This document shows positions 5,511-35,172 of a stretch of 64,000 nucleotides of DNA, piece after piece. The DNA lies in the NCBI RefSeq assembly GCF_006345805.1, contig NC_043000.1, forward strand, positions 106,392,001 through 106,456,000, written 5' to 3'. The DNA comes from Octopus sinensis. Its lineage: Eukaryota. Below the pieces are notes generated by a model. That model did not search any database. It saw only the letters and a list, made by a program, of their open reading frames with translations, and had not been told where the DNA came from. Position 1 is the stretch's first letter. Each line of letters opens with the position of its first letter. A program made the translations under genes and the position numbers.

Positions 5511-7548
5511 TATACGTGTGTATATATATATATATATAATCAGCCGAAATTGCTAAGATGATCTGGTTCTTGACTGATGACTGAGGGCTTCGAATGTCCC
5601 GTCCTGTGGTTCTTGTGTCGTCTCTGTGGTGTTTCATGTTCTTGTCCATGTCTGTAATTATTTTTACTGTTTACCTATATATATATATATATATATACAC
5701 ATACATATATAACATTTTAATGTCCACTTTTCTATGCTTGCTTGGCTGGGATGGAATTTTGTTGAGGCTGATATTCTATAGCTGAATGCCCTTCCTGTTG
5801 CCAGTCCTCACCTGTTTCCATGTAAGATAATATTTTCTCAGGACCAGACATTTTTTCCGCTGAAGATCGGGGATGATGGACACTGCTTGCATGACAGTCT
5901 CATTTGTTTCCGATTATCTCATGATGTCAAGACAAGGAGTCAGTAATACACACACACACACACACACACACACACACACACACACACACACACACACACA
6001 CACACACACACACACACACACACACACACATACACACATATACATATAAAGGTCCTTTTTGAGCCATAGGCTCATAAGGCCAGCTTCCTGGATTCTGTGG
6101 TGTACATATTTCCCTGTTGGATGAGACACCGGTCCATTGCAGGATTACTCATTTTTGCTAGCTGAGTGGACTGAAGCCATGTGAAATGAAATGTTTTGCT
6201 CAAGAGTACAAGCAACATTCGGCCCAGCAACATTCAAAACCACAATCTTACAGTCATGAGTGTAACACCCTAATAACTAAGCCACATATACTCACATGAA
6301 AGAGAATCGAAGACATATTTATTAGCACATAGCTCATAACCCTACCTCCATAAAACACAAAGGATAAAGTTCTTACATATTAAATTGCTTATTGATCAAA
6401 GAAGCCATAGAGAGAAATGTACTGAACAAACAACCTTTATACCAACCCACATCTTTTTGTGAACATCAAAGCACAAGATAAACAAATTTCTATACTAACA
6501 ACACCATGGCATACTTAACTAATAACCTCCACCTTCCAAATACAAACAGAAAATATTCTAACATCAATAGCAGTAAACAAACTTACTGACCAGCTAAAAC
6601 ATACCACTAACTTACATTCTATTATTGTGCACCCTTAAAAATACCATTATAAAAAATGCTGTCACATACAATTACTAAATTTTTAGATGCTGTTTTTATA
6701 TTGCTAAAACAAAGGATTAAATCCAATAAATCCCAAAATGATTAAAACTAATGATGCATCTGCTAACTAGAAAACTTCCTTTAATTACCTACTTCCTTTT
6801 TGTGAACCACTAAAAAAAATCCTATGACCTGAAGCTGACACATATAAATATACACACCTATTTTCAATTCCGAACATAACCCCAAATTTAATTCTGAACA
6901 AAATTCAATTCTGAACAAAAACATAACCCCAAATTTAATTACTAAAATGTTCTCCACAACACTTCTCTATTACAACCCACTCTATAACCGAATTACTGTT
7001 CAACTGAACCCACAAACCCCAGAAAATTTTTATCTCAACAGAGACTATATAAAGCCAAGATTAACTTATTGAATCACAATCCAATGGTGGCTTGGCTGAC
7101 CAAAACTTCAAAGTCACTGCCAATACTATTCTTGTTAAGGAATAATAAATCTCTACACTACAAAAGTTAGAGTGACTCTTCAGATTAATGCAAAATTGTT
7201 TTTATTATAACTAAACATCAGAACAAACATTTAAACATTTATGTGTGTGTGTGTGTGTGTGTGTGTGTGTGAGTATGTATTCAAGGGCTTCTTTCAGTCT
7301 CTGCCTTCCAAATCCATTCACAAGGCTTTGATCAGCCCAATGCTATAGCAGAAAATACTTGCTCAAGGTGAAATATGGTGGAATTGAACTCAGAACCATG
7401 TGGCTGGGAAGCAAACTTAATATCACAGTGATGTCTAAATATCTATCTATCTATCTATCATACATACATATACATATTTTCTTTTGTCTATTTTCATAAA
7501 GCTTCCCGTTATATATATATATATATATAATATTTATTATATAGAAGG

Positions 7549-7599
7549 AGCTTCTACAGGACTAGAACTGTTTCATTCAAGAGAAATCTTCAGGAAGCT
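7549..7599 (-). ncRNA. Type I hammerhead ribozyme, left arm of 3-kb fold-back
   Basis: Reverse complement reads agcttc-CTGAAGA-tttctcttgaat-GAAA-cag ttctagtc ctg-TA-gaagct. Loop III contains the palindrome CTAG. Confidence 0.8.
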
Positions 7600-10424
7600 A
7601 GTTAACAAGAATTGTATTGGCATTTATACATTTAGTAGGCAGGTTTAAAAGGGTGTTGGGGGGACTTTTTGGGGGTAGGCATAGCGCAAAAAATCATACT
7701 TGGGGGAGTGGTCAAGGAGTCAGTGTTAAATTAGATAGGAGAATAAATAAAAAATAAAAAATAAAAAATAAAAAAAAAAATAAAAAATAAAATAAAAAAT
7801 AAAAAATAAAAAATAAAAATATAAAATATAAAAAATAAAGAATAAAAAATAAAAATAGAAAATAAAAAAATAAAAAAATAAAAAATAAAAAATAAAAAAA
7901 TAAAAAAATAATAAATATTATATATATATATATATATATATATATATATATATATATATATATAAAGGGGGGAATAGAGTTTTAGGTAAATAAGGAGATT
8001 CTCACTTATACCTCTACACATACACACATATATAACAATCACACATACATATACATATCTACTACATACACATATATATGTATACATACACACACTCACT
8101 TGCATACACGTATACGCACATGTATATATACACACACGACCACACATACATATACACACAGAAAAAAATATAATACCACATACACACACATCTACTCACA
8201 TACACGCATACACACACACAAATCCATACACACACATGCACACACAGCACACTAGTCCCTATATACACATATATACACATACACACATATATATACACCC
8301 ACACATACACATACTACACATATATATAACATACATACACATACATATACACATATATATACATACACATATATATATATCTCACATATATATACATATG
8401 TGTACCCATGCATACCTACACATACACACATTATATATATACATATACAAATACAGACCCATTCCCTAATTTTAATTTTATTATCTTCGTTTATTACTTT
8501 TGTTATCTTTGGCCGCTTGGTCACAACATCTTGGCTATGACAGCCAGACCATTTATCCGGCTACTGGAAAACAATACTCATTCACTCACCCACTCTTTAG
8601 CACGTACACTCACTCATTCGTACACTCATACGCATACACGCACGCACGCGTTATATTCATACATACATACATCTACATACATTCACGTATAACACATACG
8701 TACGCGTACCTACAGATTCATGTCTACACTCTTAGAAGGCTAGTCTATACATATACACCAATAAATATAAATACACACACATACATGTACACCTACATAC
8801 AAATACATACATGTACATATATATATATACATATATATATATATATATATAATATATATATATATATATATATATATATATATATATATATATATATATA
8901 TATATATATATATACACGCGTACCTACAGATTCATGTCTACACTCTTCGAAGGCTAGTCTATACATATACACCCATATATATAAATACACACACATACAT
9001 ACATGTACACCTACATACAAACATACAAGTACATATATACATACATATAACATGTGTACATGTATGTATGTGTGTGTATTTATACTTATGGGTGTATATG
9101 TATAGACTAGCCTTCGAAGAGTGTAGACATGAATCTGTAGGTACGCGTATATATATATATATATATATATATATATATATATATATATATATATATATAT
9201 ATATATATATATATATATTGTATATATATATATGTACATGTATGTATTTGTATGTAGGTGTACATGTATGTGTGTGTATTTATATTTATTGGTGTATATG
9301 TATAGACTAGCCTTCTAAGAGTGTAGACATGAATCTGTAGGTACGCGTACGTATGTGTATATACGTGAATGTATGTAGATGTATGTATGTATGAATATAA
9401 CGCGTGCGTGCGTGTATGCGTATGAGTGTACGAATGAGTGAGTGTACGTGCTAAAGAGTGTGCGTGAGTGAATGAGTAATTGTTTTCCAGTAGCCGGATA
9501 AATGGTCTGGCTGTCATAGCCAAGATGTTTGTGACCAAGCCCAAAGATAACAAAAGTAATAACGAAGATAATAAAATTAAAATTAGGAATGGGTCTGTAT
9601 TTGTATATGTATATATATATTTGTGTGTTGTGTAGGTATGCATGGGTACACATATGTATATATATGTTATATATATATATATATGGTGTATGTATATATA
9701 TGTGTATATGTATGTGTATGTATGTATATATATGTGTATGTATGTGTATGTGTGGGTGTATATATATGTGTGTATGTGTATATATGTGTATATAGGGACT
9801 AGTGTGCTGTGTGTGCATGTTGTGTGTATGGATTTGTGTGTGTATGCGTGTATGTGAGTAGATGTGGTGTATGTGTATATATATTTTTTCTGTGTGTATA
9901 TGTATGTGTGGTCGTGTGTGTATATATACATGTGTGTATACGTGTATGCAAGTGAGTGTGTGTATGTATAATATATATGTGTATGTGTAGATATGTATAT
10001 GTATGTGTGATTGTATATATATGTGTGTATGTGTAGAGGTATAAGTGAGAATCTCCTTATTTACCTAAAACTCTATTCCCCCCTTTATATATATATAATA
10101 TATATATATATATATATAATTTATTTTTTATTTTTAATTTTTATTTTTTATTTTTTATATTTTTTTATTTTCTATTTTTTATTTTTTATTTTTTATTTTT
10201 TATATTTTATATTTTTTATTTTTTATTTTTTATTTTTTATTTTATTTTTTATTTTTTATTTTTTATTTTTTTTTTTATTTATTCTCCTATCTAATTTAAC
10301 ACTGACTCCTTGACCACTCCCCCAAGTATGATTTTTTGCGCTATGCCTACCCCCAAAAAGTCCCCCACCAACACCCCTTTAAACCTGCCTAAATGTATAA
10401 ATGCCAATACAATTCTTGTTAACT

Positions 10425-33353: not shown

Positions 33354-33673
33354 CGACAATCACCGGTCCCCGATGCGCAGGGGTCCCAATGCAAATACAT
33401 ATATCCCCCCTCCAGCGATGAAAAGTCACCAATCTCGAAAAAGTGCAAACAAGCAACAATAAATCTCTGAACGAGGCATAAACAGTAGCTGCACAATATT
33501 TAAGTGGAAAATATACTTCACGTTGTCGTGCAGCTACTGTTTATACCTCGTTCAGAGACCTACCACTGCTTGTTTACACTTTTTCGAGATTAGTGACCCC
33601 CCATCACTGGAAAAAGGATATATGCACTTGCATTGGGACCCCCCCCCCCCGCATCGAAGACCGGTGACTGTCA

Positions 33674-33716
33674 TGCACTGACGATGGGCAAATATCCAGA
33701 AACCCAGGTTCGTGCG
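33674..33716 (+). ncRNA. Hammerhead-like motif, right arm
   Basis: tgca-CTGACGA-tggg caaata tcca-GAAA-cc ca gg-TT-cgtgcg. Stem I needs a 2-nt bulge. Confidence 0.55.
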
Positions 33717-35172
33717 TATCACATCAGGTCGACGATGGGAAGGACGGCTTCCCCTTGCAAACACTGATAGGGCACAGAAAATGTGTCAATAGCCAACTGG
33801 AGAAGATGCTCTCCTGGGGCTACAAGCCACAGCAGCATCCACCCTTAGTGGTTAGCCACATTTAAGTGGCAAATATACTTCACGTATATATATATATATA
33901 TATATTTAAAAATGTAGAGATAACACACGAGTATGTAGATATTTATGAAAAAGAACAAGAATGCTATTTTTTTTTAAAATTAGGTGCATTTAAATTTATA
34001 TAAATACAGTTTAAAAAATGCTTTTGTTTTACATGTTCTGGCTGTTTATAAAGCTTATCAAAAATATGTACTTAAATGAAATATGTAGAGAAAAAAATTA
34101 TTAATAATATATATATATATATATATAATCATCGTCATTTAACATCAATTGTTCATGCTGGCATGATATATATTTATTTTGTGTCTATGTATGAGTATAT
34201 ATGTGTAAATACGTATACTTATATTTGTAGGTATGTGTACAATATATATGTATATAATTACATTGTACTGATTGTGTTTGTATAGCTGCATATGCATTAT
34301 GATTCAGCATATATTAACAGTTGTTAGGTCCTGCATAAATTATTACTATTTACCCAGTGAACATGAGTCAGAAAGGGTTTAAACAACTTCTCAGTAATAT
34401 CATTTTAAAGTTTTCTAATAAAACATTTCACCCTTGGTTTACTTCAGTCTCTTTAAACTTTCTAAACTTGTCCAAAGAAGTTTTATTTACCCTGATCAAA
34501 GCAATTTTTTTTTCATTTTTACCTCTATGTGCAATTTTTCAGACAATAAAACAGTTCTTTTTCATTCAACAATTACCTCAAATATGCTGAGTGGTGACAG
34601 TGAATCATCAGCTTCTCTAAATATATAAATAAGTATAAATATATGAATAAGTATAAATATATAAATAAGTATCTCTAAGTATATAAATAAGTGCATATAA
34701 ATAAGTATTTGACTATTTAGTTAAGAAGTTCTCTTCTTGACTATGTAGTTTTGGGTTCAGTCCCACTGTATGGCACCTTGAGTAAATGCCTTCTATTATT
34801 TCCTGTATGTTCTTAGTGTTTATTGCTCCTGCACACCTGCCACACAACAAAGTCTGCTTTCTCTATTAACCTTCCTGTGACTCCACTGCATCTCTTGTGT
34901 GTCTATAGCTTGCACTAGGTACACTATATGGAATTTCCGTTCTTTTATTCTTTTACGTGTTTCAGTCATTTGACTGCAGCCATGCTGGATCACTGCCCTA
35001 AAGGGTCTTAGTTGAAGTAATTGACCCCAGGACTTATTCTTTGTAAGCCTAGTACTTATTCTATCGGTCTCTTTTGTTGAACCACTAGGTTATGGGGACA
35101 TAAACACACCAACATCAGTTGTCAAGCGATGTGGGGAGACAAACACAGACATAAAGACCCACGTATAAATAT

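Follow-up and report, generated by a model that had tools for sequence, protein, structure and literature searches.

Outward-facing hammerhead fold-backs in an octopus genome are truncated Penelope-type ends lying head to head

Do inverted repeats that carry hammerhead ribozyme motifs facing outward on opposite strands form a class of mobile element in their own right? The question is raised by a 64,000-nucleotide stretch of the Octopus sinensis genome (contig NC_043000.1, here C4, positions 106392001-106456000; hereafter the window), in which an initial annotation described three such places and read them as a class of non-autonomous fold-back retrozymes of one design, derived from Penelope-like elements (PLEs). 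Here we refer to the elements as A (7534-10558), B (22499-22655 and 27711-27932) and C (33128-33885; its start, formerly placed at 33151, lies at ~33128). The outward-facing fold-backs are truncated Penelope-type ends arranged head to head, which is a published layout and not a new class. We put the probability at about 0.8 that A and B are end fragments of Hydra-clade PLEs bearing an open reading frame (ORF), that C is a tandem hammerhead repeat with similar ends, and that the fold-backs stem from Penelope integration.

Elements A and B and their coding parents

Inverted arms are present at all three places (arm identity 94% in A, 82% in B and 83% in C), every element end lies in or beside (TA)n, and each element bears a tail on a single arm only, all as the initial annotation had it. 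We call the short-ended arm S, the tailed arm L and the PLE terminal repeat pLTR, and L followed by a number denotes a fetched genomic locus. Both arms of A, ~1.6 kb each, are 90% identical to the 3' region of the ORF-bearing locus L164. The S arm (7534..9049, minus strand; 1.58 kb compared) would comprise the 3' untranslated region (UTR) and pLTR of a 5'-truncated Hydra-clade PLE; the L arm (9050..10558, plus strand) has an approximate start at a microsatellite-rich junction, and its tail (~10494-10558, plus) equals L164 sequence running from the pLTR towards the ORF start. Family B is represented by two stubs that are 77-93% identical to the 3' end of the ORF-bearing locus L170. In the stub with 93% identity, an L arm consisting of the tail and ~12 nt, with no hammerhead (22499..22575, minus), adjoins an S arm (22576..22655, plus) with a hammerhead at 22584-22621 whose core reads CUGACGA, most copies of the subfamily having CCGACGA. 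The older stub, at 77%, has an L arm (27711..27855, minus) with a decayed, broken-core hammerhead at ~27814-27851 and an S arm (27856..27932, plus) with a second decayed motif at ~27865-27901.

The absence of ORFs noted initially holds for the window copies, in which tblastn found no PLE ORF, but not for families A and B, whose longer copies are coding. Across the 2.72 Gb genome searched, exact patterns occur 1691 times for the A motif, 3334 for the A tail, 1012 for the B subfamily motif, 5617 for the B tail and 591 for the C end, whereas reversed-pattern controls gave 0. The best A matches are 98-99% identical, and family A is therefore young. In seven of the 18 longer A loci, the 5' side leads into a reverse transcriptase (RT)/endonuclease ORF in the same orientation. 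The 114 matches of a protein search fell into a high-identity group and a second group at 45-46%, and 20 of these loci (8 A-type, 12 B-type) were fetched. The family end lies downstream of the ORF in all 12 B-type loci and in 6 of the 8 A-type loci, the remaining two being one cut by a contig end and one with an inverted upstream arm only. L164 reads, in order, pLTR, 688-aa frame, long 3' UTR, pLTR and tail; L170 reads inverted tail-less arm, pLTR, 727-aa frame, 3' UTR, pLTR, tail and (TA)n. The family A unit is ~5.8 kb long, with a long, microsatellite-rich 3' UTR. Consequently the suggested kinship with PLEs is confirmed, in that ORF-bearing loci carry the ends seen in the window. A and B are themselves related elements, because their ORFs are 43% identical over 628 aa; their tails are 72% identical over 58 nt (E 0.001). 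The description of the three elements as unrelated in sequence is thus wrong for A and B, and remains right for C against both (E 0.07 or worse). Public data hold 1716 homologues of ~700 aa.

In each family the arms end at two fixed sites, S and L. Among the first 30 pattern matches per family, two-armed insertions pair S with L in 13 of 13 cases for A (21 insertions), in 16 of 17 for B (27 insertions; one is S+S) and in 14 of 15 for C (26 places; one is unclear). A tail-anchored sample of 70 A arms, taken in contig order, contains 39 with an adjoining inverted arm, 38 of which end at S, and all four window elements are S+L. The fold point differs between insertions, varying continuously, and many insertions are single-armed. 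The first 100 of the 1691 exact A motifs fall into 65 clusters, of which 32 face outward, 31 hold a single motif, one is inward and one is tandem; pair spacings run from 30 bp to 10.5 kb. The first 100 exact B motifs include 7 outward pairs and 0 inward, exact patterns being prone to undercount motif pairs. It is likely that the fold-back arises at insertion and that the outward hammerheads are a by-product of Penelope integration.

Such arrangements have been described before. Endonuclease-positive PLEs have an inverted 5'-truncated copy, a one-sided tail and a (TA)n target (PMC8557442); Penelope-13_HM has a motif on each strand owing to an inverted 5' copy (PMC8557442 supplement); head-to-head PLE copies (PMC3846280) and opposite-strand hammerhead pairs 100-700 bp apart (PMC4209133) have also been reported. 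A, B and C resemble these complex insertions in the head-to-head copy, the tail at one end and the two fixed ends (PMC8557442, Fig. 2 legend; PMC3846280; PMC11167929). They differ in that the S+L combination is here counted across three families, and in a 5' wall of A (see below) that the portions of those three sources covered here do not mention. Three families with thousands of copies provide large samples of how PLEs make inverted arms and tails, and both the S+L rule and the wall can be put directly, as predictions, to the in vitro PLE system.

A and B appear to be 5'-truncated ends of two related, apparently unnamed Hydra-clade PLEs, the clade being read from motifs by eye. A single ORF with an RT plus a C-terminal GIY-YIG-type endonuclease, likewise recognised by eye, is linked to their termini. 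In a census of 13 ORF stretches (3 A, 10 B), with the endonuclease and the absence of CCHH judged by eye, YRDD occurs in all 13, CxxC..CxH in 12, RWK or RWR in 11 and DKT (in place of DKG) in 10, the misses for the last two being truncated or damaged copies; CCHH was seen in none. The CxCx5C linker is present in all three A stretches and, in its strict form, in just one of the 10 B stretches. Such motifs define the Hydra clade of C-terminal endonuclease PLEs (PMC8557442, Craig et al. 2021). With its members Hydra-1_Obim, Hydra-2_Amil and Penelope-13_HM, A and B share RWK, DKT, GLYRDDGL, CxCx5C, and CxxC plus CxH around the endonuclease end, as well as the (TA)n target and the inverted 5'-truncated copy with an opposite-strand motif. 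The 3' hammerhead of A has the 4-bp stem III strand ACAG/CUGU of the clade and the U.U closing of stem II found in Hydra-clade hammerheads in Craig File S2 (PMC8557442 supplement), and the B motif is almost identical to a coral motif (Hydra-2_aMil) in the same supplement. Unlike the clade, A has a long microsatellite-rich 3' UTR, the tails are ~70 nt, and one B subfamily has C at core position 4; A and B are also distinct from Hydra-1_Obim, short motif searches of the PMC8557442 supplement having given 0. That large B subfamily has the core CCGACGA (U4C; 1012 exact copies, sampled at L183-L212), ORF-bearing B copies having CTGATGA, and the U4C change reduces hammerhead activity in vitro (PMC3088659).

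Neptune-type PLEs, recovered by a GIY-YIG family search, were considered as partners and rejected, as they have their own hammerheads and termini without a match to A, B or C. They form at least three families (L111-L121), each with its own hammerhead where seen, one of which has RT-GIY-YIG frames intact over 781 aa, overlapped by an upstream frame that reaches 479 aa at most.

Hammerhead motifs and family C

A type I hammerhead descriptor was run on the window, with 20 local shuffles as background. Exact cores were found at +10431-10468 and -7593-7555 in A and at +22588-22617 in the smaller B stub, and a core with one mismatch at -33349-33317 in C; the shuffles gave means of 0.1 and 0.3 descriptor matches each. 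An Rfam scan of the window returned 115 weak matches, with the hammerhead not among them. Three stems and the conserved core are present in both A motifs and in 22584-22621 and are lacking in the two motifs of 27711-27932, so that intact motifs in the window are limited to the two of A and the single one of 22499-22655. The minus-strand A motif (7549..7599) has the intact core CUGAAGA / GAAA / GUA, with U.U at 10.1-11.1, and its plus-strand partner (10425..10474) has an intact core and a loop 3 one base shorter than in the family. Both C motifs are damaged, the minus one by GAAG for GAAA and the plus one by a GUU triplet and stem mismatches. The paired opposite-strand motifs of the initial annotation are therefore a good description of A, apply to 27711-27938 and C only as decayed remnants, and do not fit 22499-22655, because a single motif is found there. 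One of 134 family A contexts, at L215 (1481-1640; C1 ~1599700), shows a unit whose end falls precisely on the nucleotide where the cut is predicted and is fused there to sequence from further upstream in the element. This join could have arisen when the RT jumped onto an RNA end left by self-cleavage.

The L arm of element C (33128..33494, minus) consists of about one 357-bp unit and a tail with an internal deletion, and contains a hammerhead at 33311-33355 in which A14 reads as G; its S arm (33498..33885, plus) consists of one unit plus 26 nt, with a decayed hammerhead at 33672-33716. Elsewhere, the ~357-bp unit occurs as monomers, partial tandems and inverted pairs, with tandem units in L047/L057 and L401, and a younger sister family has a 352-bp unit at ~74% identity. 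In the type I motif of C, stem I is extended and loop 2 has six bases. In an alignment of 37 rows, 88.9% of the stem cells are paired, as against 15-61% in slid controls, and 4 of the 17 pairs change on both sides, which does not exceed shuffles; family A is too young to show stem variation in such a comparison.

Non-LTR (long terminal repeat) retrozymes are delimited as tandem units of 170-400 bp that lack an ORF and each carry a type I motif, and family C, an ORF-less tandem retrozyme-type repeat, fits them. C has in common with the metazoan non-LTR retrozymes (PMC7229834; bioRxiv 10.64898/2026.07.22.740005) the ORF-less tandem unit, a canonical-looking type I motif and an AAAUA-type loop 2. 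It differs from them in having mostly one or two units rather than long arrays and in a higher GC content; its head-to-head arms have no mention in the parts of those two sources covered here. For A and B, the possibility of retrozymes without a coding parent was ruled out by the ORF-bearing parents. From the ends of C, we infer that it may have been moved in trans by a PLE enzyme. The 5' ends of C arms (L243-L272) cluster near two unit positions, neither of which is the cut site or stem I.

A copy of element C with clustered A-to-G changes

The proposal that transcripts of such hairpins link self-cleavage with ADAR is only partly supported: the ADAR part finds support at one locus, window C, while the self-cleavage link and the fold-back class do not. 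When window C was compared with 25 family units and a paralog, its minus arm showed 24 A>G changes and its plus arm 21 T>C; the corresponding numbers are at most 4 and 5 in the units and 1 and 1 in the paralog. The element lies within a larger block (32139..34114, minus) that is a copy of C4 ~75044430-75046812. Between block and paralog, 52 of the 59 substitutions are A>G on the minus strand, and 50 of these fall within the hairpin, where 50 of 167 A are changed as compared with 2 of 299 outside it (p 1.5e-22); one of the changes lies in the hammerhead core (33325). G is depleted 5' of the changed sites (2/43 vs 48/174, p 0.0009), and depletion of an upstream G is a known ADAR preference (PMC5625713). 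On the RNA 3' side, at ~32144, the block stops in a (GAT)n tail belonging to a SINE-like (short interspersed nuclear element) repeat; its other end, at 34114, is truncated in (TA)n, and relative to the paralog it lacks 400 bp of tandem repeat. A GC-rich 350-bp tandem repeat beside C (32638-33136) has two copies here and three at the paralog, and was found at no other fetched locus. A 185-bp repeat occurs twice in opposite orientation, 85% alike, at 5298-5482 and 31948-32132, the latter flanking the block.

We consider it quite probable, judging by these substitutions, that the block is a retrocopy whose template was a hairpin RNA, hyper-edited and uncut. The source locus would have given rise to a read-through RNA that folded, was edited by ADAR, stayed intact across the cut site of the sense motif, which was already weakened in the source, and was then retroposed through the SINE tail. 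It is also probable, if slightly less so, that Penelope head-to-heads are a mass ADAR substrate, with 32139-34114 representing an RNA that was edited at 50 A in both arms, left uncut, reverse-transcribed and fixed in the germ line while its unedited source remains, and with the wall of the short stubs possibly marking a transcription start. If genuine, the copy would be a rare dated record that such a hairpin underwent transcription in the germ line and hyper-editing but escaped self-cleavage, the source locus providing a built-in control, and it would suggest a simple genome-wide screen for edited retrocopies in animals that edit RNA heavily.

Folding predictions agree with a long hairpin. 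The read-through transcript of C is predicted to fold at -500 kcal/mol with 79% of its bases paired, and the arm ends of A to pair at -274 kcal/mol, as against -25 and -16 alone. A hairpin of this length would be expected to sequester the sense hammerhead. Pair probabilities at the plus motif of C are zero even in the isolated arm and are thus uninformative on this point. The self-cleavage link is accordingly left unsupported, since the read-through transcript is predicted to bury the sense motif and the hairpin RNA recorded in the block would be intact across the cut site. Clusters of A>G and T>C also occur on loose ends of A pLTRs in contigs from runs guessed to be RNA, and one of the A>G clusters takes in 8 of 10 adenosines, among them those of the GAAA core and cut triplet; these are single contigs, assessed by eye and not assigned to a source copy.

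Window C resembles ADAR hyper-edited inverted repeats (PMC5625713) in the clustering of A>G changes in a long hairpin and in the depletion of upstream G; unlike those cases, its changes are found in a genome assembly, in a copy of another locus, and not in RNA alone. In a screen for one-strand A>G excess covering 321 arms in 238 loci, with overlaps, the window C copy alone was flagged, and window A showed none. ADAR-edited RNA can become fixed in a retroviral provirus in cell culture. No direct precedent for ADAR-edited retrocopies was found in searches of an open-access library, which does not show that none is in print, and one paper considered and rejected ADAR for a mouse provirus.

Formation of the inverted arms and neighbouring features

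In the anole PLE, the protein, a predicted dimer, nicks and extends both strands and begins synthesis at two internal positions on the RNA, between which the tail lies; it has no need of hammerhead cleavage (PMC11167929). As in the anole element, the tails of L164 and L170 are sequence running from the pLTR towards the ORF start. By analogy, an RT-endonuclease would nick both strands of a (TA)n tract, and each nick would prime cDNA synthesis on element RNA, one at the proximal fixed site S and the other at the distal site L, 45-70 nt beyond S, which would make the tail. Both cDNAs would stop early, and their ends would be joined head to head through microhomology. With the hammerhead positioned immediately upstream of S, any pair of arms that extends as far as the motif would show one on each strand, facing outward.

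We lean towards two primings over the snap-back suggested for rotifer Penelope, in which a single cDNA would fold back on a short palindrome and serve as template for its own second arm; PMC3846280 makes the case for such self-priming from palindromes where copies meet head to head. The 39 A pairs speak to both. In 14 of them no more than 1 nt separates the starts of the two arms, and several of these starts fall on a 4-nt palindrome with which stem I opens, as a snap-back would have it. A snap-back further predicts that the tailed arm always reaches furthest 5', whereas the tail-less arm reaches further in 15 pairs and the tailed arm in 10, with 14 equal, and palindromic microhomology suits the end-joining of two cDNAs equally well. 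We therefore regard a snap-back as unlikely, and the closeness of the two ends is explained in part by a 5' wall.

This wall is seen when the starts of the 70 A arms are counted from the hammerhead cut site: 21 arms run at least 170 nt upstream, 3 start at -169 to -45, 31 at -44 to -36, and 15 further down, with 15 arms starting exactly at -44, the first base of stem I. An alignment stop alone is weak proof of a wall, because older A subfamilies diverge upstream of -44; among the 31 A arms with an abutting inverted arm, however, 21 start at -44 to -36 and 0 between -45 and -110. In family B the starts of 11 out of 30 arms lie at -39 to -49. Family A has a TATAAA at -73 from the cut site (10396..10401, plus, in the window), a candidate promoter element 29 nt above the wall; at the same distance B has a weak TATA-like word (TATAGA) that is not seen in two CCGACGA-type references. 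One possible reading is that the short stubs were copied as cDNA from the 5' end of the element mRNA, which would make the wall the transcription start; alternatively, stem I may be closed by the new cDNA, causing the enzyme to fall off. A literature search for a transcription-start explanation of PLE truncation found nothing relevant beyond PMC8557442.

A class of non-autonomous fold-back retrozymes, yielding one sense ribozyme and long dsRNA when transcribed from either direction, might account for the 32 to 1 excess of outward over inward A pairs, for the retention of both cores in 25 of 39 short two-armed A stubs, and for the editing of the hairpin RNA. Against it stand the ORF-bearing elements of which A and B are stumps, a fold point that varies continuously from insertion to insertion, the many copies with one arm or one motif, and a similar fold-back at the front of ORF-bearing L170, which together leave little of a single design. 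In addition, the B and C motifs in the window are decayed, the strong pairing predicted for the A arms would sequester the motif, and the edited RNA spans the cut site. We hold such a class to be very unlikely. An assembly artefact, with A arising as a chimera from a fold-back read or with RNA data as the source of the A>G changes of C, is a shade less credible still. In its favour, the A arms differ mainly by indels (13 mismatches and 80 gap positions in 1496); yet the A ends follow S+L with different flanks on each side, the layout recurs genome-wide, and relative to the paralog the C block has 7 other substitutions, the 400-bp deletion and flanks of its own. A DNA transposon (a miniature inverted-repeat transposable element, MITE, or foldback element with terminal inverted repeats) would suit the inverted termini and TA targets but can be dismissed, as the termini differ (S vs L), the junction is variable with almost no spacer between the arms, and both arms map to the 3' end of RT-encoding elements, the RT parents refuting it for A and B.

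Several observations nevertheless weigh against integration of Hydra-clade PLE ends as the common origin. A Pfam search of the A and B ORFs gave no RT or GIY-YIG match, the clade resting on motifs compared by eye, and the tails of A and B, at ~70 nt, exceed the 30-40 nt described for PLEs in the sources covered. No PLE ORF was found joined to C in 90 loci (tblastn with five PLE proteins), in which Neptune-type fragments are neighbours alone, and stem covariation within family C does not exceed shuffles (27/500, 172/500 and 34/500). The agreement within 1 nt of the two 5' ends in 14 of 39 A pairs is not explained by two independent cDNAs alone.

Other features of the window lie beside these elements. 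Near the B stubs, a plus-strand frame (24949-25551), which presumably resembles an M28-type peptidase exon, ends in NCHYDSV and has no Pfam match; the B stubs may lie in introns of the gene to which this exon-like frame belongs. A 223-aa minus-strand frame (56838-57509), also with no Pfam match, resembles what we take to be the C-terminal part of a LINE (long interspersed nuclear element) RT protein. At 35173-35785, a pair of 156-bp arms, 96% complementary, with a 301-bp spacer and no hammerhead, looks like an ordinary MITE.

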